Shown: piece after piece, positions 3,813 to 16,759 of the stretch
How the letters are laid out: the number at the start of each line of letters is the position of its first letter
Position numbering within the stretch: the first letter of the stretch is position 1
From: Methanobrevibacter sp.
GTDB lineage: Archaea > Methanobacteriota > Methanobacteria > Methanobacteriales > Methanobacteriaceae
Reading direction: 5' to 3'
Length of the DNA stretch: 32,000 bases
Assembly: GCF_045114555.1 (NCBI RefSeq)
Contig: NZ_JBGUKT010000018.1
Span: 1,907-33,906, forward strand
The notes under the pieces: model-generated
Told to the model about the DNA's origin: nothing
Seen by the model: the letters and a program-made list of their open reading frames with translations, nothing else
Database searches by the model: none
Position numbers and translations under genes: made by a program

Positions 3813-3851
3813 AAAAAAAGAAAAATGTGAAGACGTATTATTTACGTCTTC
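3813..3851 (-). terminator. Hairpin plus oligo-T terminator of adhesin paralog 1, with the stop codon inside the hairpin loop
   Basis: Minus strand reads GAAGACGT-AAATAAT-ACGTCTTC, an 8 bp perfect stem at 3829-3836/3844-3851. It is followed by ACATTTTTCTTTTTTT. The stem encodes the RRR tail and the loop holds AAA-TAA (Lys-stop). An identical element sits at 9327-9365. Confidence 0.6.
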
Positions 3852-6800
3852 TTCCTAAATTTGTAGATATTATCATTGCGAATGCCAATAAAACAAGCAA
3901 TACTGGATTACCTGTCTTAGCTAATGCAGGTTCAATCTCACTGCCTTGATTTTCAGCAACAACCACGTCATCAGGATTTACATCCTCACCATTGCCATTG
4001 TCAGGGACTGTTTCGTTATTGCCAGTTCCATTATCCGGTTTTGTATTGTTGTTGTCATCAGTACTGTTGTTGTTTTCAGCTTCTGTAACAGCAACTATTT
4101 CAGAGGATGCCTCGTCATTGGATGAATTGACATCATTTCCATTTAGGCTTACAGTAGCAGAGTTTGAGTAATTTCCTGCATTGTCAATCTTGACAGTGAC
4201 AGTTAACTTTACACTGGAACCATTGGACAATTCGCCAACAGACCATACGCCACTAGATGAATCGTAATCATCTGAAGATGCAGAGACAAATGTGAAATCA
4301 GCCAATTGACTGTCAGTAACCTTTACACCGCTTGAATCGTTAGGACCATTATTGGAAACGGTAATTGTGTATGTCACTTCATCGCCAACATTTATTTCTG
4401 TCTTGTCGACTGAGATGTCAATTGCCAAGTCAGAAACAGGATCAACGGTAAGTTTAGTTGAATAATCCTCGCTTGCCTTAAGCTCATTTGCTGAAACAGT
4501 GGATTTCAATTCCTTGGTTCCAACGAAGCTTGCCTTTGCAAGAATGGAAATGCTTGCTTCATCCCCATTAGCCAAGTCTCCAACAGACCATTCTCCAGAA
4601 GATGAGTCATATCCTTGACTTGAAGCCATCAACCTGCTCTTGGTAGAGAGATAATCAGAATCTGTAATGTTGTCAGATACATAAACCAATCCGTCAGGAA
4701 GAGTATTTTTCACAATGACTCCGCTTGCATCGTTAGGACCATTGTTCTTAACGGTAACAACCAATTCAACAATGTCATCGTAATTTACTTCGTTGCTGGA
4801 AAGGCTTATGGATACGCTTAAATCTGCTACAGGAATAGCCTTGACTTCAGGAGCACTAGCCTTATTGTCATCTGTATTGTTATCAAACTCTTTGGAAGTA
4901 ACATTAACCTCATTGGTCAATGCATCCAATGAATTAACAGTAGCATACAAGGTCAAAGAAACCTCACTGCCAGAGTCAATGCTTGCGATTTCCCATACAC
5001 CATTTCCTACATAAGTATCATCTGCTGAACTTACATTCATGCCACTAGGAACGGTATCTGTTACAACCACATTAGTAGCAGTATTCGGACCATTATTGGT
5101 TACAGTGATAGTGTAAGTGACAGCGTCTCCATAATAAGGAGTCATGATATCTACGGTCTTGACAATGCTCAAGTCAACTACAGGCTCAGCAACAACACCA
5201 GGTGCATCTGCACTATTGTCAGACTCTTCAGGATCATATTCATTAGCCCTGACAATGACACTATTTTCAATGGTGCCATTAGCAATTGCCCTGACAGTCA
5301 AATCTAAAGTAACCGGACTATTCGCAGCCAGCTTGTCAATATGCCATTTATTGGTTTGGTTATCGTATGTTCCAACGCTAGGTGAAGCGCTGACAAACTC
5401 AACAAGACTGCTTAAACTGTCATAAACATCAATATCAGTAGCATCGAAAGGACCTAAATTCACAAGATTGACTGTATATGTAATCAAGTCCCCGACTTTT
5501 ACAGTTTTTTTGTCTACGGTTTTGTTGATTCTCAAATCAGCTACAGACAATGCCTTTATGGTGCTGATATTGTCTGCATTGTTGGAATCGTTGGAGTCAT
5601 GCTCGCTGCAGCTTACGCTAACATAATTGTTAATGTCGCCTGCTGAAGTGACATTTGCGACTATTGCCAAAACAGCAGTATATCCACTTCTCAAATTAGT
5701 GATATTCCAAATTTTGCCGTTATAGGTTCCTATGCCGGTCTGGCTGGAATCCAAAGCAAGATGGGAATCCAATGCTTCCTCAACGACTACCTCAGTAGCA
5801 TCACAAGGCCCGTGATTGTGAACTTCTATGGTAAATTCTATTTGGTCTCCGACATGAACCTCGCCGGAGGCTACATTGACCTTTTTAGTGATTTGCAGAT
5901 CAACTAGAGGATGAACAGTGACAAGAACTTTAGTGCTGTTAGAGAAATAATTTTCGTTTCCGGCAAAGCTAACAGTGATATTGGCCTCACCAACGCCTAC
6001 AGCAACCATATTTCCATCTTCATCAACAGCAACAACGCTTTCATTGCTGGAAGCATAATCCAATACTCCCGCATTGGAAGGATCTAAAACCGCACCAATA
6101 TTGACTTGATTCCCTATATACAAGTCAAATGAATCGTTGACTTTGATGGATGTTGGAATCCTATTGTCACTTACAGTGACTGTGACTGTTGCGTTTGAAG
6201 GGGCATAATCGTCATTTCCTGCAAAGCTGATAAATACAGTAGTGGTGCCTACAGCCTTAGCCTCTAAATTGCCATAACTGTCAACTACTACAACGCTTTC
6301 ATTATTGCTTGTGTAGTCTAAAGAACCAGCCCCACTAGGATTCAAGACTGCATTAATCGCATCAAATTCACCAACCATATATGCCAATGCTTCCGGAGCA
6401 TCAATCCAGGTAGGAGTAATGACACGAACAATAACTTCCTTGCTAGCGGATTTATGGTTTTTATCAACAAGAGTGCTTAACTTTACAGTATAATTGCCTA
6501 CATCCAGACCAGTGACAATTACTTTTCCATCACTTACGGTAAAGTTATAATCAATGCCAACATACAAGATGGAACTGCCTTTTTTGATGCCGGTTATAGT
6601 TACAGTACCATTTTCTGCGGTATAGTTCAATTCAGCATCACTGCCTTTGACAATGGTTGTTCCATTTGCATCAAGACTGGAAGAAGCCTTATAGACATTG
6701 AATGAAGTCCTATTATGTGTATACATATAAGGTTCACCCTCTTCAAACTTAGTGAACTGAACATAAGCACCATATCCATCCTTTACATCAAGCAAAGCAG

Positions 6801-9036
6801 GAAGACGTATAATTTTCCCATTTAACTCATTTTCAGCTACAGTGACATTATAAGCCAATACATTTCCCTTTTTAACGTCATCATTGGAAAATGTGACATC
6901 ATAGCTTGAATTGGCAAGGTAAATGGTATAATTTCCTGAAACATTAGTGCTTAAATTAACAACAAGGTCTTCGCCATAAACAGCATCAGCAACATTGATC
7001 TTAAGAGTGTTGTTTAAGTAATTCAAAGATATAAAAGTACCTTTCTCCTTACCACTTCCTGTATAATAACTATCATCTGGATGGTATGCTTCATAGGAAT
7101 ACACTCCATATGGGAGAGTCTTATACTCATCAAAGAAAACCTGACCATTAATATTGGTTTGCTTTGTAATATTTAGCTTTGCTTTTCCAAGACCCGGAGT
7201 AAGGGAATTCCAAACTACTATAGTAATGTTTATACCTGCCTCTTTATTGCTGTTTATAGGAGAGTCACTGGTTACAAAAGAACCATCCCAATAGGTGACA
7301 TTTTGGAAATTAACACTACCGTAATTTTTAATTGCATTAATGTAATCTTCTTCACCTTTAAAAGTGAAGACTTTGGCATATTCTTGGGAATCCTCAGTTA
7401 AACTTACACTATTTGCTTTATTATACCTGAAAGTAGAATCTGCTATAAGGGAAATATTTCCTAGATTGTCTATTGCACCACCATAACTAGCGGAATTGTA
7501 CTCAAAGGTTGAATTTGCAATAAGTCCTAAATTTTCAACAATTGTGATTGCACCTCCATAATTAGCGGAATTGCGCTCAAATGTTGAATCTGCAATTATA
7601 GCCTTTTTAGATTCTTCACCCATCCAATAGATAGCACCGCCGCTAAAGGAAGCGGAGTTTTTCTTAAAGGTACAATTTGTAATGCTAGTGTGATCACCTG
7701 AATTTTCCAAGCAGATAGCACCACCAAAAGATAATAAAGAAGATGCTTTATTGTTTTCAAATAGAGAATTGGATATTTGGCAATTTTTTCCTACAAAAAG
7801 GATAGCACCACCAAGATTAGCCGTATTGCCTCTAAATTGACAGTTATCCACTTTAATATTATCTGCACCTGCCCAAGAATAAATAGCAGCCCCATATCTT
7901 CCCGCTTGATTATTAATAAATTGGGAATTAGATATTACATCATTACTACCCATTACGAGAATAGCACCTTCACTCTCAGCATAATTGTTTTTAAAAATAC
8001 AACCATCAATAGTACTCCGATGATCGATTTTAATAGCACTTCCTGAAGTGGCACGATTATTTTCAAACCTGCAGGAAAATACTACACTTCCATGATCAAG
8101 TTCGACCGCACCCCCCATTTTAGCAGTATTATTTATAAAGGTAGAGTTAGATACTTTAGATTCGCCAAAAATACTGATAGCGCCACCCGTATCATCTATA
8201 ACACTATTTGATATAAAAGTGCAGTTTCTAACATGGGCGAAATTCGTATTGAGAAAAACAGCACCCCCAGAACTAACTTGAAAACCTCCTACCTCATTTT
8301 CAATAAAGGTACAGTTCTCAATGAGGGCAGTACTCACTTCGTTCCTCCTATCTGTTATATATATAGCGCCACCTTTTGTACTAGCAAAATTTTTAGTGAA
8401 AATACAATTAAATATCTTAAGATTTGGAACAGCCTGACAATAAATGGCACCCCCCTCATAGGTTCCTGTGTACCATGTACCGTCATAATAATTATACGCA
8501 TTTGTAAACTTAATATTAGTTAAATTAACATCTTTAGCATATGAAATAAAAAGTATACGAGTAGTTTTCATTCCATTTAATGTTGCATATTGATCAGACC
8601 TATTGGCACCAATTATATTGATAGGTTTATTAATAGTAATCTGACTAAGCCCAATATATGTACGGCCATTTAGATAAATGGTATCCCCAGGGTTTGCCAT
8701 ATCAATTGCATCTTGAATATTTTGAAAGGAACCTCCATTAAGATTGATGTTCTTGCCTAATTTAGAGCTTTGCAAGACATTAGAAGAAGAATCCTTAACA
8801 TTTTCACTTGAATAATCCTCTTCTAGGGAAGCGTTTGTTGAATCTTGCTTAAGGGTTGCAACATCATCTACAGAATTCTCTTCATCAATTGACAGATCTT
8901 GAGTGGCTAAATCTGCATTAATGGAAGAATCGGGAATAGATAAATCGCTTGCATCTTCAGCTGAAACATTGGATAAACAGGTTAAAAGAGTAAAAATGAT
9001 TAAAATACCAAGTAACAGTTTCCTTTTGCTTTTCGT
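3838..9036 (-). CDS. Giant adhesin-like surface protein, paralog 1 (signal peptide, PMP beta-helix repeats, 2 Big_2-like Ig domains, 5 DUF11 repeats, LAKTG-TM-RRRK tail)
   Basis: One uninterrupted minus-strand frame runs from TAA 3838-3840 up to the in-frame TAA at 9061-9063. The ORF-track start (TTG 8775) is an internal Leu. The frame continues upstream through an acidic region and a signal peptide (KTKSKRKLLLGILIIFTLLTCLSNVSA/EDAS) homologous to paralog 2. I set the 5' end provisionally at ACG 9036, 5 nt after AAGGAGGTG, because no canonical start exists. There are about 13 GGAIY...N(C/S)(T/I)F.xN.A repeats and DUF11 units of the form VDLxIxKTV....TNNGP. Confidence 0.85.
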   Translation of the reverse strand, partial: TKSKRKLLLGILIIFTLLTCLSNVSAEDASDLSIPDSSINADLATQDLSIDEENSVDDVATLKQDSTNASLEEDYSSENVKDSSSNVLQSSKLGKNINLNGGSFQNIQDAIDMANPGDTIYLNGRTYIGLSQITINKPINIIGANRSDQYATLNGMKTTRILFISYAKDVNLTNIKFTNAYNYYDGTWYTGTYEGGAIYCQAVPNLKIFNCIFTKNFASTKGGAIYITDRRNEVSTALIENCTFIENEVGGFQVSSGGAVFLNTNFAHVRNCTFISNSVIDDTGGAISIFGESKVSNSTFINNTAKMGGAVELDHGSVVFSCRFENNRATSGSAIKIDHRSTIDGCIFKNNYAESEGAILVMGSNDVISNSQFINNQAGRYGAAIYSWAGADNIKVDNCQFRGNTANLGGAILFVGKNCQISNSLFENNKASSLLSFGGAICLENSGDHTSITNCTFKKNSASFSGGAIYWMGEESKKAIIADSTFERNSANYGGAITIVENLGLIANSTFEYNSASYGGAIDNLGNISLIADSTFRYNKANSVSLTEDSQEYAKVFTFKGEEDYINAIKNYGSVNFQNVTYWDGSFVTSDSPINSNKEAGINITIVVWNSLTPGLGKAKLNITKQTNINGQVFFDEYKTLPYGVYSYEAYHPDDSYYTGSGKEKGTFISLNYLNNTLKINVADAVYGEDLVVNLSTNVSGNYTIYLANSSYDVTFSNDDVKKGNVLAYNVTVAENELNGKIIRLPALLDVKDGYGAYVQFTKFEEGEPYMYTHNRTSFNVYKASSSLDANGTTIVKGSDAELNYTAENGTVTITGIKKGSSILYVGIDYNFTVSDGKVIVTGLDVGNYTVKLSTLVDKNHKSASKEVIVRVITPTWIDAPEALAYMVGEFDAINAVLNPSGAGSLDYTSNNESVVVVDSYGNLEAKAVGTTTVFISFAGNDDYAPSNATVTVTVSDNRIPTSIKVNDSFDLYIGNQVNIGAVLDPSNAGVLDYASSNESVVAVDEDGNMVAVGVGEANITVSFAGNENYFSNSTKVLVTVHPLVDLQITKKVNVASGEVHVGDQIEFTIEVHNHGPCDATEVVVEEALDSHLALDSSQTGIGTYNGKIWNITNLRSGYTAVLAIVANVTSAGDINNYVSVSCSEHDSNDSNNADNISTIKALSVADLRINKTVDKKTVKVGDLITYTVNLVNLGPFDATDIDVYDSLSSLVEFVSASPSVGTYDNQTNKWHIDKLAANSPVTLDLTVRAIANGTIENSVIVRANEYDPEESDNSADAPGVVAEPVVDLSIVKTVDIMTPYYGDAVTYTITVTNNGPNTATNVVVTDTVPSGMNVSSADDTYVGNGVWEIASIDSGSEVSLTLYATVNSLDALTNEVNVTSKEFDNNTDDNKASAPEVKAIPVADLSVSISLSSNEVNYDDIVELVVTVKNNGPNDASGVIVKNTLPDGLVYVSDNITDSDYLSTKSRLMASSQGYDSSSGEWSVGDLANGDEASISILAKASFVGTKELKSTVSANELKASEDYSTKLTVDPVSDLAIDISVDKTEINVGDEVTYTITVSNNGPNDSSGVKVTDSQLADFTFVSASSDDYDSSSGVWSVGELSNGSSVKLTVTVKIDNAGNYSNSATVSLNGNDVNSSNDEASSEIVAVTEAENNNSTDDNNNTKPDNGTGNNETVPDNGNGEDVNPDDVVVAENQGSEIEPALAKTGNPVLLVLLAFAMIISTNLGRRRK
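3841..3924 (-). other. C-terminal LPXTG-like sorting signal of paralog 1 (LAKTG, hydrophobic helix, RRRK)
   Basis: I translated this by hand. LAKTG occupies codons 3910-3924, followed by NPVLLVLLAFAMIISTNLG and RRRK-stop. Confidence 0.6.
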
Positions 9037-9041
9037 TTTTT

Positions 9042-9050
9042 CACCTCCTT
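9042..9050 (-). promoter_or_regulatory. Shine-Dalgarno AAGGAGGTG of adhesin paralog 1
   Basis: This is a perfect complement to the canonical 16S rRNA 3' tail. It sits immediately 5' of the signal-peptide codons and is identical in paralog 2 (14676-14684). Confidence 0.65.
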
Positions 9051-9230
9051 TTACAATCGATTAAATAAAAAATGAAAAAAATATTTCATTCAAAAGCACT
9101 TGAATAAAAAAATAAAAATAATATAAAGTTTTATATTAAACCATTAATTTAATAGAGCTTGAAAAATTTATCGCCTCATTTAAAAATGTTAAATAAATTG
9201 AATATTCACAAAATATTTCTTTCATTATTT

Positions 9231-9255
9231 TATATAAAACTATTATTATATAAAT
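9231..9255 (-). promoter_or_regulatory. Conserved dual TATA-box block upstream of adhesin paralog 1
   Basis: Minus strand reads ATTTATATAATAATAGTTTTATATA, which contains two archaeal TTTATATA-type boxes. The 25 nt are identical upstream of paralog 2 (14838-14862), while most of the surrounding intergenic DNA has diverged. Confidence 0.4.
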
Positions 9256-9326
9256 GTATATAGCTTAAAAAATCCTGAAAAAATATATCGAAATGTTCAA
9301 TTATGATATGGAAATTAGATTAATGT

Positions 9327-9365
9327 AAAAAAAGAAAAATGTGAAGACGTATTATTTACGTCTTC
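9327..9365 (-). terminator. Hairpin plus oligo-T terminator of adhesin paralog 2, with the stop codon in the loop
   Basis: Same GAAGACGT-AAATAAT-ACGTCTTC hairpin (9343-9350/9358-9365) followed by ACATTTTTCTTTTTTT on the minus strand. Confidence 0.6.
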
Positions 9366-12300
9366 TTCCTAAATTTGTAGATATTATCATAACAAATGCC
9401 AATAAAACAAGCAATATTGGATTACCTGTTTTTGCTAATGCAGGTTCAACAGCACCAGCTGGATTTACATCCTCACCACTGCCATTATCCGGAACAGTTT
9501 CATTGTTAATGTCAGGGCCATTGTATGGATCTGTCTCATTAAAAATGTCAGTTTCATTGTCTGGTTCTGTCTCGTTGTTGTTTTCAGCTTCTGTAACAGC
9601 AACTATTTCAGAGGTTGCCTCATCGTTGGATGAATTGACATCATTTCCATTAACGCTTACAGTAGCGGAGTTTGAGTAATTTCCTGCATTGTCAATCTTG
9701 ACAGTGACAGTTAACTTAACGCTGGACCCATTGGATAATTCGCCAACAGACCATACTCCACTATCTGCACTATAATCATCTGAAGATGCAGAAACAAATG
9801 TAAAATCAGCCAATTTACTGTCAGTAACCTTTACACCGCTTGCATCATTAGGACCATTGTTAGTTATGGTAATTGTATATGTTACTTCATCCCCGACATT
9901 TATTTCTGTCTTGTCGACTGAAATGTCAATTGCCAAGTCAGAAGCTGGATCAACGGTAAGTTCAGTTGAATAGTCCTCGCTTGCCTTAAGCTCATTTGCT
10001 GAAACAGTGGATTTCAATTCCTTGGTTCCAACGAAGTTAGCCTTTGCAAGAATGGAAATGCTAGTTTCATCACCATTAGCCAAGTCTCCAACAGACCATT
10101 CGCCAGAAGATGAGTCATATCCTTGACTTGAAGCCATCAATCTATTCTTGGTTGAGAGATAATCAGAATCTGAAACATTGTCAGAAACATAAACCAAACC
10201 TTCTGGAAGAGTGTTTTTAACGAGTACGCCGCTTGCATCGTTAGGACCATTGTTCTTAACGGTAACGACCAGTTCTACGATGTCGTCATAATTTACTTCG
10301 TTGCTGGAAAGGCTTATGGATGCACTTAAATCTGCTACAGGTGTAGGGTTGACGACTGGAGAGCTTGCACTGCTATAGTCAACGCTTTCAACATAAGCGT
10401 CCACGCTATCGACTTTAGCACTTGAACTCAAAGGATCAAGAGTATTTACAGTTCCACCAATCTCCAATTTCGCAGTATCTCCTTCGTTAAGGCCATCTAT
10501 AGTCCATTGGCTGGTTTGAGAGTCATATGTTCCAACGCTAGGAGTGATGGTCATGCCGTCCAAGCCTTCCGGTACAGTGACATTGATTACCAAATTAGTT
10601 GCATCAGACGGACCGTTGTTAGTCACGCTTGTAGCGAATCCGATTGAATCGCCGAAATCAGGACTTGTATTGTTTACTTCACTGCTCACAACCAAATTGA
10701 CAACAGCTTCAACAAGAACTGAATCTGAACTAGCTTTATCATTGGAGTCATTTAAGTCCTTTTCGTTAGCGCTGACAGATGCAGTGTTTGCTATAGTGCC
10801 ATTGCCTATAAGCTTGGTTACTAAAACCAACTCTTTAGATTCCTTGCTTGCTAAGTTTCCAACTGTCCAAACGCCATTGAAATCAATTCCATTGCCGTCA
10901 ACTGTAGCGGAAACAAGCTCAACAAGATTAGAAAGCTCATCACTTACATTTATGCCAGTTGCAGTGCAAGGACCATTATTGGTTACACTGATAGTGTACT
11001 TAATGGTATCTCCAACTTTAGCGCTTGTTGAATTAACCGCTTTGCTAATGCTTAAATCAACAACAGGAACAGCACTGACAGAATCAGATTTAACTGCATT
11101 GTCCTTTGTATTGCTATCAAACTCTTTGGAAGTAACATTAACCTCATTGGTCAATGAATCCAAGGAATTAACAGTAGCATACAAGGTCAAAGACACTTTA
11201 CTGCCAGAGTCAATGCTCGCTATTTCCCATACACCATTTCCTACATAAGTATCATCTGCTGAACTTACATTCATACCACTAGGAACGGTATCTGTTACAA
11301 CCACATTAGTAGCAGTATTCGGACCATTATTGGTTACAGTAATTGTGTAAGTGACAGTATCTGCATAATAAGGAGTCTGATTGTTTACAGTCTTGACAAT
11401 AGCCAAATCAACTAGAGGATGAACCTTGACCAATACTTCAGTACTGCTAGAGTAATAGTCATCGTTTCCAGCAAAGCTTACTGTGATATTGGCCTCACCA
11501 ACGCCCTTAGCGACCATATTTCCATCTTCATCAACTGTAACAACGCTTTCATTGCTGGAAGCATAATCCAATTCTCCAGCATTTGAAGGATCTAAAGAAG
11601 CGCCCATATTAACTTGATCATTTACATGCAAATCAAATGTATCATTCACTTCAATTGATGTCTGTACCCTGGAATTAACAACTGTGATTAGAACTGTTGC
11701 ACTTGAAGGAGCATAGATCTCATCTCCAGCAAATCTGACAGTGACATTGGCTTTGCCTATGCCTTTAGGAATCAAATTTCCATTGCCATCAACTGTGACT
11801 ATGCTTTCATTTCCGCTTTCAAAAGTTAAGCTTCCAGCTCCATGCGGATTTAAGGTTGCAACAATAGAACCTAAACCATCAGCAAATAAATTTACTGTTT
11901 TAGGAGCATCAATGCTGGTTGGAATGAGAACATTTACAGTTACTTCCTTGCTTGAAAGATTATGATTGGCATCAACGACAGTGGTTAGATTAACAGAATA
12001 CTTGCCTGAATCCAATCCGCTTATTATGACCTTATCATCACTTACAGCAAAGGTGTAATCAGTGCCGTTTTCCAATATGGAATTGCCTTTTTTAATGCTA
12101 GTTACGGTTACTGTACCATTTACTGCAGTGTAGTTCAATTCAGCATCACTGCCATTGAGGATAGTTGTTCCATTTGCATCAAGACTGGAAGCCGCCTTAT
12201 AGACATTGAATGAAGTCCTATTGCGTGAATACATATAAGGCGCACCATCTGCATCATTGGTAAACTGAACATAAGCACCATATCCATCCTTTGCATCAAG

Positions 12301-14670
12301 CAAAGCAGGAATTTGTATGACTTTACCATTCAATTCATTTTTAGATACGCTGACCTTATAAGCCAATACATTGCCTTTGCTGACATCATCATTGGTAAAT
12401 GTAACGTCATAGCTTGAATTTGCAATGTAAATAGTGTAATCTCCTGAAACATTTGTGCTTAAATTAACAACAAGATCTTCGCCATAAACCGCATCGGCAA
12501 CATCAATCTTAAGAGTATTCTTTTTGTAATCACTCTGTCTTAAATCAAGGGTATGCCATATATAATTTGATTGAGTGTAATAACTATCATCTGGATGAAT
12601 TACTACATATGTATATGTAGTCTTTCCAAATGGGGCAGACTTATACTCATCAAAGACAACTTGGCCATTGATATTGGTTGCTTTTGTAAAAGTTAGCGTT
12701 TGACCTGAAGCTGTTAGACCTATAGTAATGTTTATGCCTGCTTCCTTATTGCTTTTTATAGGAGAGTCGCTAGATACTAGTGAACCATCCCAATAAGTTA
12801 CATTCTGGAAATTAACTTTGGCAGAATCACCAGTTTTAATAGCATTCATATAATCTTCATTTCCTGTAAAAGTATAGATTTTAGCATCTGATTGGGAAGT
12901 CTCAGTAAGACTTGTAGTATTTGCCTTATTGTTTATGAATGTAGAATTTGCAATAAGGTTCAGATTATGAAGAATCGCTATTGCACCACCATAAACTGCA
13001 GAATTATGCTCAAAGGTAGAATTTGCAATTACAGCCTTTTTTGAAGTATCATTCATCCAGTATATAGCACCGCCGTAAATAGCATAGTTTGCATTAAAGC
13101 TACAGTTTACAATGCTAGAGGAATCAGGAGTATCTTCAATATAGATAGCTCCACCAAAACCTACATAATTATCATCTACTCTATTATTCTCAAATAGTGA
13201 ATCGGATATTTGGCAATTCTTACCGTAAAAAAAGATGGCCCCTCCCCTTTGTCCAACATGATTGTTAATAAATCGGGAGTTTTCCACTACAATACTGGCA
13301 CTATCAGACCATGTATAAATGGCAGCACCATAATTTTTTGCATAATTATTGTCAAATATGGAATTATTTATTACTAAATTTTTAGATTGTGCAGCAATGG
13401 CCCCTTCACTACCTGCATTATTCCTCAAGAAAGTACAATTATCTATAGTGAAAGAGCTGATAGAATATATAGCACTCCCAGTTGCAGCACTATTTTCTAC
13501 AAATTTAGAATTAATAATGCTACCTCCGTTTAGCCGTTTAAAAATGGCTCCACCTCTAGAGGTACCATCACTACCGATCACCCTATTATTCTCAAAATAA
13601 CAAGTTGAAATGACACCGTTTCCATCATCCTCCCATTCTATAGCGCCACCCGCTTTACCGGCAGAATTATTCTTAAAGGAACAATTGAAAATATAGAGAT
13701 CATCAGCAGTAACAATATTAATAGCAGCAGCATATGTAATTGCCACATTATTTAAGAAATTGCAATTTAATATATTATTATTATTACCTTTTATTAAATA
13801 TATGCAGCTACCAGTGGAACCTGTGGCACGACCATTATCACGACCATAATTGCTATCAAAAGTACAATTTAAAATAGTGGAATATGAAGACTGTAGATAT
13901 ATTGCACCTCCATTATATGCAGAATTGTTTGCAAATACACAATTTTCAATATGTTGATTACTAGTTTTAGAGGCATAATAAATTGCTCCTCCACGAAAAT
14001 CCAGTTCATAAGTAGAAATGGCAGAATTATATTTAAAGGCACAATTCTTTATAATACCATTGCTGCCACCCCAATAAATAGCACCTCCATGTGGATCCTC
14101 ATTCTCCTCAACTTCACCACTATAAAATTCGATGTTGATTAAGGTTACATCATTTGCAGTGATATAAAACATACGAGAAAGAACTTGTGCATATAAAAAT
14201 ACATGTTTATTTTCAAAACTGGAGTTTCCTATTATTGTAATGGGCTTATTAATAGTTATATGGGTTCCGGATCCAGTATACATATTATTAGCATTACCTC
14301 CATTTAAATAAATAGTGTCTCCAGAGTCTGCACGGTCGATTGCATCTTGAATATCTTTAAAGGTAGTTCCGCCTACACTGATATCCTTGCCCAATTTAGA
14401 GCTTTGCAAACTGGAAGAATTCTTAATCAGATCATCCTCTAAATAATCATCCGGGGAAGCATTAGTTGAATCTTGATTAGCAATTGCAACATCATCTATG
14501 CCAGTTATAGGTTCTTCATCAATTGATACATCCTGAGTGCTTAAATCTGCATCAATGGAAGAATCTTGAATTGCTAAACTGCCTGTATCTTCAGCTGAAA
14601 CATTAGATAAAAAGATTAGAATACTGAAAATAATTACAATACCGAGTAACTGTTTCCTTTTGCTATTCGT
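9352..14670 (-). CDS. Giant adhesin-like surface protein, paralog 2 (signal peptide, expanded PMP beta-helix region, 2 Big_2-like domains, 5 DUF11 repeats, LAKTG-TM-RRRK tail)
   Basis: The uninterrupted minus-strand frame has stop TAA at 9352-9354. The ORF track extends it to ATG 14724, but that extension (MKYFSHLLTQLIVKGGEK) reads through the conserved AAGGAGGTG. The 5' end is set at the homologous ACG 14670, with ATG 14724 as the alternative. Signal peptide: KTNSKRKQLLGIVIIFSILIFLSNVSA/EDTG. Confidence 0.85.
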   Translation of the reverse strand, partial: TNSKRKQLLGIVIIFSILIFLSNVSAEDTGSLAIQDSSIDADLSTQDVSIDEEPITGIDDVAIANQDSTNASPDDYLEDDLIKNSSSLQSSKLGKDISVGGTTFKDIQDAIDRADSGDTIYLNGGNANNMYTGSGTHITINKPITIIGNSSFENKHVFLYAQVLSRMFYITANDVTLINIEFYSGEVEENEDPHGGAIYWGGSNGIIKNCAFKYNSAISTYELDFRGGAIYYASKTSNQHIENCVFANNSAYNGGAIYLQSSYSTILNCTFDSNYGRDNGRATGSTGSCIYLIKGNNNNILNCNFLNNVAITYAAAINIVTADDLYIFNCSFKNNSAGKAGGAIEWEDDGNGVISTCYFENNRVIGSDGTSRGGAIFKRLNGGSIINSKFVENSAATGSAIYSISSFTIDNCTFLRNNAGSEGAIAAQSKNLVINNSIFDNNYAKNYGAAIYTWSDSASIVVENSRFINNHVGQRGGAIFFYGKNCQISDSLFENNRVDDNYVGFGGAIYIEDTPDSSSIVNCSFNANYAIYGGAIYWMNDTSKKAVIANSTFEHNSAVYGGAIAILHNLNLIANSTFINNKANTTSLTETSQSDAKIYTFTGNEDYMNAIKTGDSAKVNFQNVTYWDGSLVSSDSPIKSNKEAGINITIGLTASGQTLTFTKATNINGQVVFDEYKSAPFGKTTYTYVVIHPDDSYYTQSNYIWHTLDLRQSDYKKNTLKIDVADAVYGEDLVVNLSTNVSGDYTIYIANSSYDVTFTNDDVSKGNVLAYKVSVSKNELNGKVIQIPALLDAKDGYGAYVQFTNDADGAPYMYSRNRTSFNVYKAASSLDANGTTILNGSDAELNYTAVNGTVTVTSIKKGNSILENGTDYTFAVSDDKVIISGLDSGKYSVNLTTVVDANHNLSSKEVTVNVLIPTSIDAPKTVNLFADGLGSIVATLNPHGAGSLTFESGNESIVTVDGNGNLIPKGIGKANVTVRFAGDEIYAPSSATVLITVVNSRVQTSIEVNDTFDLHVNDQVNMGASLDPSNAGELDYASSNESVVTVDEDGNMVAKGVGEANITVSFAGNDDYYSSSTEVLVKVHPLVDLAIVKTVNNQTPYYADTVTYTITVTNNGPNTATNVVVTDTVPSGMNVSSADDTYVGNGVWEIASIDSGSKVSLTLYATVNSLDSLTNEVNVTSKEFDSNTKDNAVKSDSVSAVPVVDLSISKAVNSTSAKVGDTIKYTISVTNNGPCTATGINVSDELSNLVELVSATVDGNGIDFNGVWTVGNLASKESKELVLVTKLIGNGTIANTASVSANEKDLNDSNDKASSDSVLVEAVVNLVVSSEVNNTSPDFGDSIGFATSVTNNGPSDATNLVINVTVPEGLDGMTITPSVGTYDSQTSQWTIDGLNEGDTAKLEIGGTVNTLDPLSSSAKVDSVDAYVESVDYSSASSPVVNPTPVADLSASISLSSNEVNYDDIVELVVTVKNNGPNDASGVLVKNTLPEGLVYVSDNVSDSDYLSTKNRLMASSQGYDSSSGEWSVGDLANGDETSISILAKANFVGTKELKSTVSANELKASEDYSTELTVDPASDLAIDISVDKTEINVGDEVTYTITITNNGPNDASGVKVTDSKLADFTFVSASSDDYSADSGVWSVGELSNGSSVKLTVTVKIDNAGNYSNSATVSVNGNDVNSSNDEATSEIVAVTEAENNNETEPDNETDIFNETDPYNGPDINNETVPDNGSGEDVNPAGAVEPALAKTGNPILLVLLAFVMIISTNLGRRRK
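9355..9438 (-). other. C-terminal LPXTG-like sorting signal of paralog 2
   Basis: EPALAKTGNPILLVLLAFVMIISTNLGRRRK-stop. It has the same length and architecture as paralog 1. Confidence 0.6.
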
Positions 14671-14675
14671 TTTTT

Positions 14676-14684
14676 CACCTCCTT
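14676..14684 (-). promoter_or_regulatory. Shine-Dalgarno AAGGAGGTG of adhesin paralog 2
   Basis: Identical to 9042-9050 and followed by the same AAAAA-ACG-AA(T/A)-AGC-AAA-AGG-AAA sequence. Confidence 0.6.
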
Positions 14685-14837
14685 TTACAATCAATTGAGT
14701 TAAAAGATGAGAAAAATATTTCATTCAAAAGTTCCTGCATAAAAAAATAAGTACAGAAAAAAAATTTTATATATTGAATTATTGAAATTTATGAAAAATC
14801 AAATAATTAAAAATGATAAATGTCTTTTTCAATATTG

Positions 14838-14862
14838 TATATAAAACTATTATTATATAAAT
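14838..14862 (-). promoter_or_regulatory. Conserved dual TATA-box block upstream of adhesin paralog 2
   Basis: The 25 nt are identical to 9231-9255. Confidence 0.4.
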
Positions 14863-14986
14863 CTATATATTTGAAAAATGTCTTAAGTTAAAATAATTGA
14901 ATTTAAAAAACAAGTGAATGAAAAGCAATGCAAAAAAGTTTTTTTAAAAATTAAAAATTGAAAATAAAAATCTATTATGAATTTAA

Positions 14987-15928: not shown

Positions 15929-16759
15929 TTATTCTGGTTTGCTGATTAAATCAAGTTTGCAACCAACGTTACCTTCTTTCATGTGAGGGGTTCTTAATAC
16001 AGTGTCGTTGGATTTTTCAATTTCTCTTGCTTCAGCTGCTAATGCAGCAGCACATGCAGCCATTTCGTGAGCAGCAGCTACTAAAGGAATGAAGTTTTCG
16101 AATCCTTTGGTCATGAAACAACCTTTCATGTCTAAACCTGCTACAGCGCCAGCCATTTCGTATGCAGCAATAGCTTTTGCTTTTGCGTATGGGTTTTGGA
16201 ATTTAGCAGCTTCTACAGCTTTTTCAGCAGTTACAATGAGTTTAGGTAATTCGATTTCGTTACCTGCTTCAACAGCTTCGATTACACCGTCAATGGTTTT
16301 TTGTACTAATCTTAAAGCACCGGTTTCAGCTAATACCTTAATGATGTCAGCGTTGAAAATAGCCATTTCAGTTGGGTCTAACCATTCTCTTTTTGCACCG
16401 ATCATTGGGTCTGCCATAACAATAATGTAACCTAAACCTTGTTCGTCCATTTCGTCTTTCTTACCTTTACCAGGAGCGTCACCAATGATAATAGCAGGAA
16501 TATCTTCTGCAGATAATAATTCTCTTGCTCTAGCAGGACCAGGTGCTGCTGGGTTTGGGCTAATGAAAATACAGAAATCTGGGTCGAATTGTTTGAACTT
16601 AGGTACAACGTCTTCGACTTGTTCAGGGTTCATTTTTGCTCCAGATCCAAATACTCTTACGTCGATGTTTGGTCTGTCTGCTCTTTCGTCTAATAATAAA
16701 TCTAATATTGGTGAAGTACCAATATTACCACTTCTTAATATAGCGATTTTAACTACCAT
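15929..16759 (-). CDS. mtd: F420-dependent methylenetetrahydromethanopterin dehydrogenase
   Basis: MVVKIAILRSGNIGTSPILDLLLDERADRPNIDVRV...ISPNPAAPGP...ADPMIGAKREWLDPTEMA...HEMAA...AREIEKSNDTVLRTPH is recognisably Mtd over its full length (276 aa). The start is ATG 16759. The ORF-track extension to 16816 is AT-rich read-through. Confidence 0.92.
   Translation of the reverse strand: MVVKIAILRSGNIGTSPILDLLLDERADRPNIDVRVFGSGAKMNPEQVEDVVPKFKQFDPDFCIFISPNPAAPGPARARELLSAEDIPAIIIGDAPGKGKKDEMDEQGLGYIIVMADPMIGAKREWLDPTEMAIFNADIIKVLAETGALRLVQKTIDGVIEAVEAGNEIELPKLIVTAEKAVEAAKFQNPYAKAKAIAAYEMAGAVAGLDMKGCFMTKGFENFIPLVAAAHEMAACAAALAAEAREIEKSNDTVLRTPHMKEGNVGCKLDLISKPE

Follow-up and report, generated by a model that had tools for sequence, protein, structure and literature searches.

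The question raised by this locus is where translation begins in a gene that has a perfect Shine-Dalgarno (SD) sequence and no canonical start codon behind it. The locus lies in a 32,000-nt stretch of a Methanobrevibacter sp. contig (NZ_JBGUKT010000018.1, positions 1,907 to 33,906), hereafter the window, in which two large open reading frames (ORFs) on the minus strand encode adhesin-like proteins: paralog 1 (3838..9036, 1732 sense codons from a proposed ACG start to the stop codon) and paralog 2 (9352..14670, 1772 sense codons from ACG). A preliminary description of the window had proposed that either both genes start at a noncanonical codon or paralog 1 is a start-less copy of an otherwise intact long gene. 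We tentatively favor SD-directed initiation at the near-cognate codon ACG in both genes, with the adjoining run of A residues acting as an untranslated spacer, a reading to which we give somewhat less than even confidence. Initiation at a GTG next to an A-run of variable length is its main rival, a silent copy is less likely, and recoding is the least likely explanation.

Read on the minus strand, the 5' end of paralog 1 is TAA TCG ATT GTA AAA GGA GGT GAA AAA ACG AAA AGC AAA AGG AAA CTG. It contains AGGAGGTGA (9041..9049), complementary at 9/9 nt to the 3' end of archaeal 16S, AUCACCUCCU; AAGGAGGTG occupies 9050-9042 and the GGAGG core 9048-9044. A run of six A residues (A6, 9036..9041) spaces the SD from the ACG (9034..9036), the last A of the run being the first base of that codon. 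Upstream, the frame is closed by a TAA at 9063-9061, and none of the 95 sense codons between this stop and the TTG at 8775 is ATG, GTG or TTG. The lack of a canonical start in paralog 1 can thus be read directly from the sequence, as had been claimed; the figure of 87 upstream sense codons given with that claim is right when counted from ACG and becomes 95 when counted from the TAA. The frame encodes a complete signal peptide, (T/M)KSKRK-LLLGILIIFTLLTCL-SNVSA (8959..9036, minus strand), with cleavage before ED, and EDASDLSIPDSSINADLATQDLSIDEENSVDDVATLK is among the peptides specific to paralog 1. ATT at 9057 was rejected as a start, being located upstream of the SD and having no SD of its own.

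The same arrangement is found in paralog 2, where the SD AGGAGGTGA (14675..14683, minus strand) is followed by an A6 run (14675-14670) and an ACG (14668..14670) located 7 nt after GGAGG. The string at 14684-14668 is identical to that of paralog 1, as previously described. Within the 32-kb window, AGGAGGTGA occurs only at the 5' ends of these two adhesin-like genes, compared to 0.17 occurrences expected, and none of 100 shuffles gave two.

We calibrated the position of the start codon with genes from the same contigs having an SD match of at least 6 nt, taking the distance from the GGAGG-equivalent to ATG. This spacing was 6 nt for a radical-SAM gene, 7 nt for a MatE-like gene and for a gene of contig L028 (comparison contigs are designated L, and homologous proteins P), and 8 nt for a gene of 373 aa; a Fae/Hps gene reads GGAGG-N7-ATG. 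ACG, at 7 nt from GGAGG behind A6 or 8 nt behind the A7 runs described below, falls within the 6-8 nt of these ordinary genes, and the 7-nt spacing reported earlier for the window proved correct. In contrast, the only canonical codon nearby, a GTG inside the SD (9042..9044, minus strand), overlaps the GGAGG core, a spacing below zero that no calibrating gene shows. In the window, this GTG is also one base out of frame and opens an ORF of only 14 codons ending at TAA. By this measure, ACG, like the ATC of the gene families presented below, is where a start codon belongs, and the SD cannot serve a GTG that overlaps it. Compared to a canonical SD-led start, paralog 1 has full complementarity to the 16S (9/9) and a spacing within the usual range of about 5-9 nt, and departs from it in lacking ATG, GTG or TTG at that position. 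The codon that stands there has a single mismatch, lies at P-site distance and has no canonical alternative that would give the full-length product, while in paralog 2 an upstream ATG is available as an alternative.

The closest genome record, that of the uncultured rumen Methanobrevibacter sp. RUG344, is 99% identical across the N-terminus of paralog 1. The start sequence of paralog 1 recurs base for base in L017, L021, L024 and L030, and the start string of paralog 2 is present in more than 10 independent contigs from metagenomes or metagenome-assembled genomes (MAGs). An assembly or homopolymer sequencing error, which had been considered possible at the start region, is excluded, as A6, ACG and the one-base upstream difference recur across many independent assemblies. 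Paralog 1 is also otherwise intact, as earlier stated: its frame remains open over the 1732 codons from ACG, it is open in 5/5 assemblies covering the gene (spanning 639-1732 codons), and no decay was seen in any assembly. ACG is a rare codon, accounting for 6 of the 468 Thr codons in the genes of the window (1.3%), two of these six being the proposed starts, and for none of the Thr codons of 12 housekeeping genes. It is invariant in 13/13 distinct 5' contexts, within a 45-nt segment that is nearly invariant as well. Orthologs carrying ATG at this position had been suggested as a possible finding; our alignments of alleles and homologs revealed no ATG at the ACG codon in any sequence checked.

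Parallel cases were found in other adhesin-like genes. L005 and L007 carry an adhesin-like gene of 2208 aa behind AAAAAAAGGAGG-ACATTTT-ATC AAT ACT AAA, with two stop codons just upstream. The region comprising AAAGGAGG-ACATTTT-ATC and the full signal peptide is located at L005:17029-17125, L007:17071-17167, L033:119-215 and L034:2051-2147, and defines a second family. Its signal peptide, (I)NTKIINS-ILIILMLFCLISLVG-TASA followed by ED, is complete only when translation starts at ATC, 7 nt after GGAGG. The first canonical codons, a TTG and an ATG, lie within the hydrophobic core without an SD, and the ATG is replaced by ATA in L033 and L034; both substitutions between ATC and TTG are synonymous. 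None of 13 homologs (42-61% identity) has Met at the Ile position. Instead, eight start within the hydrophobic core and three extend upstream through KGGHF, the SD read as protein. Gene callers truncate or over-extend this family. A third family (GGAGG-AGATAAT-ATC, L035:1304-1400), whose 5' untranslated region (UTR) is homologous to that of the second, keeps ATC and the 7-nt spacing despite a diverged spacer, flanks and downstream codons. Between the two families, the ATC-to-TTG distance differs by 6 nt, which preserves the frame, and the upstream lengths differ by 2-4 nt, out of frame. In L035, the gene is called from a TTG that precedes the SD (MYSNGGDN...).

Among homologous proteins P0001-P0196, 31 of the 153 adhesin-like proteins with a signal-peptide-like core start within the hydrophobic core, without a preceding Lys or Arg. 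Several others extend upstream through GG-x-x, again an SD read as protein, e.g. P0053 (NGGDN-I) and P0107 (LGGKI-I). These sequences hint that mis-called starts are common among adhesin-like genes. It is possible, if doubtful, that adhesin-like genes of rumen Methanobrevibacter systematically start at near-cognate codons located 7-8 nt behind very strong SDs, one family using ACG and two or more others AUC. If so, class-wide near-cognate starts would make the output of these genes low and jointly tunable, e.g. by aIF1 stringency, SD-sequestering hairpins or spacer length, and gene callers would truncate or mis-extend a sizeable share of them.

We favor initiation at ACG because of the perfect SD, its spacing, the rarity of the codon, an intact yet start-less paralog 1, one-base indels confined to the upstream side, and the ATC families. 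Under this reading, the 30S subunit would anchor on the 9-nt SD AGGAGGUGA, and initiator Met-tRNA would pair with ACG despite a second-position mismatch, at a distance of 7 nt from GGAGG (8 nt in A7 alleles). The protein would begin with M-K-S-K-R-K and run on into the hydrophobic core of its signal peptide. As an untranslated spacer, the A-run would tolerate variation between A6 and A7. A very strong SD may offset a weak start codon, and this very large surface protein would then be produced at a low, possibly tunable level.

Several points weigh against initiation at ACG. AUG, GUG and UUG are the sole generally accepted archaeal start codons, and aIF1 destabilizes complexes formed on non-AUG mRNA (PMC7531240, PMC6237735). 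The invariance of ACG has little statistical power as the whole surrounding 45-nt segment is nearly invariant. The ratio of nonsynonymous to synonymous substitution rates (dN/dS) among copies of paralog 1 is uninformative, most pairs differing at only 5-10 sites, and cannot show current selection. In distant homologs, the corresponding Thr is internal (P0035, MNTKSR; P0077, MSKTNKKK; P0044, MDKKVSKTNKKK). Furthermore, A7 in three allele lineages puts a canonical GTG in frame, and the upstream ATG of paralog 2, gained by two changes, looks in the alignment like the rescue of a missing start.

The fifth of these points leads to the main rival. Homologs P0001, P0003, P0004 and P0005 start with MKKTKSKRK, and the DNA of three such homologs (L025, L026 and L027), along with L028 and L031, reads AGGAGGTG-A7-CG. 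In these A7 alleles, the GTG embedded in the SD is in frame (GTG AAA AAA ACG), and gene callers take it as the start (MKKT). The GTG could therefore be the real start, A7 alleles being ON and A6 alleles frameshifted OFF. In that case paralog 1 would be inactive, either as a contingency locus or as a silent copy, while paralog 2 would be ON through its upstream ATG, which is in frame with A6. We consider this rather unlikely, although several observations agree with it. The frame is open from GTG in the A7 alleles of all three lineages, and the tract varies on an otherwise identical background: L026 and paralog 1 share an identical 5' UTR for about 150 nt but have A7 and A6, respectively. The gain of an in-frame ATG in paralog 2 through two changes fits selection for a canonical start, and two to seven residues precede Thr in distant homologs (MNT, MSKT, MDKKVSKT).

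Against a GTG start, the overlap with the GGAGG core would render the perfect SD useless or even obstructive. The tract lies within a translated region only if this GTG is the start, which its spacing argues against. A tract that differs in length on an otherwise identical upstream background, as between paralog 1 (A6) and L026 (A7), is expected of phase variation. However, 6-7 nt is short for slipped-strand switching, for which tracts of at least 8 nt are typical, and A6 was found throughout the RUG344-like contigs, i.e., in all of the at least 10 paralog 2 contigs and in 5/5 paralog 1 contigs (at least 15 contigs of a RUG344-like species). No A5 or A8 was seen among the alleles. Furthermore, a switched-off paralog 1 is difficult to reconcile with its lack of decay, and a GTG start explains neither the rare ACG codon nor the GGAGG-N7-ATC families, which have no A-run and no GTG.

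In A7 alleles of other species, a T-run upstream of the conserved upstream ATG has lengths of T7, T9 and T10 (L027, ~589-600; L028, ~2838-2850; L031). These differences among contigs indicate that homopolymer length variation is not confined to the A-run. We also observed an adhesin-like gene adjoining a phage-type integrase (L036:1985-4799, also in L037-L040) that starts with ATG AAA AAA ACA, hence MKKT with an A7 run. In 5/5 contigs, this gene is divided between two overlapping ORFs (73 aa and 257 aa), and in L036 a separately started adhesin-like ORF of 537 aa follows. It has an in-frame ATC 8 nt after AGGTGAT, three codons ahead of the ATG.

The A-run also invites a recoding explanation, in which translation starts at the GTG and ribosomes slip by -1 on G-AAA-AAA before a rare CGA codon, or RNA polymerase adds an A, so that some of the products regain the frame. 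A run of Lys codons is slippery, the next codon in the GTG frame is CGA (4/186 Arg codons), and a -1 shift lands exactly on ACG. This explanation nonetheless requires initiation at the same SD-overlapping GTG, G-AAA-AAA is only partly slippery, and A6 is shorter than the tracts known for useful transcriptional slippage. No convincing stimulatory structure was found downstream, the prediction being weak and devoid of covariation, and the ATC families are out of its reach. We regard recoding as highly improbable.

Initiation at ACG also fits the distribution of changes among alleles. One-base indels were found only upstream of ACG, in the region of the short upstream ORF and in the A-run, while downstream of it no frame-breaking indel was observed. 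Over the first 28 codons of divergent alleles, the proportion of synonymous differences (pS) was about 0.26-0.31 and that of nonsynonymous differences (pN) about 0.06-0.12. In the signal-peptide codons, pN/pS was about 0.06-0.41, with an exception at 0.87 (paralog 1 vs L027). The excess of pS over pN in the first 28 codons shows that the signal peptide evolved as coding sequence.

A conserved ATG lies about 40 nt ahead of the SD in both genes (paralog 1, 9089; paralog 2, 14724). That of paralog 1 opens a short ORF (MKYFFHFLFNRL*, 9051..9089, minus strand) that stops at the TAA at 9053-9051, just before the SD. This 12-codon ORF, closed by a TAA immediately 5' of the SD, is also found in L025 and L026 and is shorter in L027. 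In paralog 2, the ATG (14722..14724, minus strand) is in frame and would extend the protein by MKYFSHLLTQLIVKGGEK, but it owes this frame entirely to two differences from paralog 1 and the other alleles, namely one additional base and the replacement of TAA by CAA. TTG at 14694 is a further in-frame canonical codon upstream in this gene. The two paralogs are thus not alike, as paralog 1 has no canonical codon there and paralog 2 has both ATG 14724 and TTG 14694. Since neither its frame nor its length is conserved among alleles, the segment following the upstream ATG is not an ancestral coding sequence.

The upstream ATG is central to another explanation, in which paralog 1 is a start-less copy that fell silent recently, perhaps a recombination cassette for paralog 2, and paralog 2 is translated from ATG 14724, with AAAGGAGGT there encoding K-G-G. 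The locus itself lends this some support. Its gene content depends on the strain: a single adhesin-like gene of 1550 aa is directly followed by hisB (IGPD) in, e.g., L006, L015, L016 and L023, while two paralogs (1790 aa and about 1730 aa) are present in L017, L021, L024 and the window. Alleles can be mosaic, as in L026, where the paralog 1 UTR is joined to a coding sequence resembling paralog 2. The paralog 1 copies of the window and L017 show 10 differences over the first 1347 codons, a number that climbs to 32 over 1591 codons between the window and L024, and the one informative dN/dS pair probably reflects a recombined 3' segment. The very low diversity among paralog 1 copies also fits a recent event. 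Conversely, the segment from the ATG to the SD is interrupted by in-frame stops and single-base indels in paralog 1, L025, L026 and L027, the SD of ATG 14724 is weak (AGGAAC), and an 18-residue extension ahead of the n-region is atypical of a signal peptide. Paralog 1 moreover retains a promoter-like block, its SD and an open frame of 1732 codons. A silenced copy is thus improbable in our view. Both options put forward in the preliminary description survive, with SD geometry, the rare ACG and the ATC families favoring noncanonical initiation. That description missed the A6/A7 variation, which opens a third reading, as well as the usable ATG of paralog 2 and the absence of any ortholog with ATG at the ACG codon.

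Between the upstream ATG and the SD, a U-rich stretch, UUUUUUUCAUUUUUU (9067..9081, minus strand), is predicted to pair with AGGAGGUGAAAAAA; the resulting weak hairpin would occlude the SD. The predicted structure (9036-9081, and 14670-14717 in paralog 2) hides the SD and the A-run, with energies of -8 to -11 kcal/mol and z-scores of -0.7 to -3; no covariation supporting it was found. Such a hairpin might control translation in the manner of a fourU element. Another conserved T-rich block is located about 25 nt ahead of the upstream ATG.

Some 190 nt before the SD, both genes carry a TATA-rich block, TATATA[C/G]ATTTATATAATAATAGTTTTATATA, about 32 nt long. The copy of paralog 1, TATATACATTTATATAATAATAGTTTTATATA (9231-9262, minus strand), was found by alignment with that of paralog 2 (14838-14869, minus strand), from which it differs by one base (G for C in paralog 2). 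The block is likely an archaeal promoter common to both paralogs, which would imply long 5' UTRs. A terminator-like signal made of a 9-bp GC-containing hairpin and a T-run (9343-9365, minus strand) lies across the end of paralog 2, whose stop codon is at 9354-9352, suggesting that paralog 1 has its own transcript, separate from that of paralog 2. No Rfam match and no tRNA were found in the window.

Both proteins have the features of Methanobrevibacter adhesin-like proteins (ALPs), namely a signal peptide, beta-helix/PMP repeats and Ig-like/CLIPPER domains. The Pfam families Beta_helix, Chlam_PMP, Big_2 and CLIPPER match identical or orthologous called genes of both paralogs, while exact-protein look-ups with the paralog 1 and paralog 2 products returned no match. 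DNA-pattern scans amounted to two loci in the metagenome scan and three loci in the genome scan. The window also contains the gene of Mtd, the F420-dependent methylene-tetrahydromethanopterin (H4MPT) dehydrogenase (15929-16759, minus strand), and further methanogen genes. The assignment to the genus Methanobrevibacter is based on this Mtd neighbor and on the RUG344 record.

Near-cognate initiation is, to our knowledge and in the literature searched, undescribed for archaeal genes or for Methanobrevibacter ALPs. We found no literature on the start codons or phase variation of adhesin-like genes, nor on archaeal ACG or AUC starts, and a full-text search for Methanobrevibacter, adhesin-like and phase variation together returned no paper. 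The ALPs of M. ruminantium M1 and M. millerae SM9 are described in their genome papers (PMC2812497, PMC4987999), in which term searches revealed no mention of frameshifts, pseudogenes or homopolymers, and a mention of a start codon only for the Cdc6-1 gene, as the genome origin. Like those ALPs, the proteins studied here are large and secreted, contain beta-helix/PMP repeats and Ig-like/CLIPPER domains, and occur as multiple paralogs.

Annotation pipelines cut, over-extend or mark as broken any gene starting outside AUG, GUG and UUG. If ACG and AUC starts behind strong SDs are real and recurrent in Methanobrevibacter adhesin-like genes, the annotation of many surface proteins is wrong in the main methanogens of rumen and gut, with signal peptides lost, which bears on target lists for vaccines and inhibitors. 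Archaeal start-codon stringency would also be looser than assumed and nearer to eukaryotic near-cognate initiation, and a layer of translational control would be indicated for a large and costly gene family. If, instead, the GTG and its A-run are the start, the locus becomes a candidate for homopolymer ON/OFF switching of an archaeal surface protein, of which we found no case in the literature searched.

The contingency loci of Neisseria, Haemophilus and Campylobacter switch surface proteins by means of homopolymer tracts in the 5' coding region. The locus described here resembles them in encoding a large surface adhesin with a homopolymer next to the start, a one-base difference of which shifts the frame relative to a possible start. 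It differs in its short tract of 6-7 nt, in the overlap between the GTG and the SD, in the absence of mixed tract lengths within a lineage and in its archaeal host.

Near-cognate starts are established in E. coli infC and pcnB (AUU) and in eukaryotic and viral genes using ACG, such as that of VP2 of adeno-associated virus (AAV). Paralog 1 shares with them a codon one mismatch away from AUG, a strong context and the lack of a canonical alternative for the full-length product, and a low or regulated output would likewise be expected. Unlike them, the present cases are proposed from sequence and concern archaeal adhesin-like genes, one family with ACG and two with ATC, for which no autoregulatory logic is known.

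The closest archaeal counterpart of the site itself is that of Pyrococcus abyssi aEF1A, GGAGGUGAU-UUAA-AUG (GGAGGUGAUUUAA-AUG), which reads GGAGG-N8-AUG and forms a 9-bp SD duplex with AUCACCUCC (PMC7531240, PMC6237735); PMC7531240 gives both the 16S consensus and the duplex. After SD pairing, the initiator tRNA scans locally around the P site (PMC7531240, PMC6237735). The adhesin-like genes share the 9-nt SD pairing with AUCACCUCC and the 7-8 nt between GGAGG and the P-site codon, and differ in that this codon is ACG rather than AUG, GUG or UUG. Judged by its sequence, the site is thus a canonical archaeal SD-led initiation region in all but the codon.

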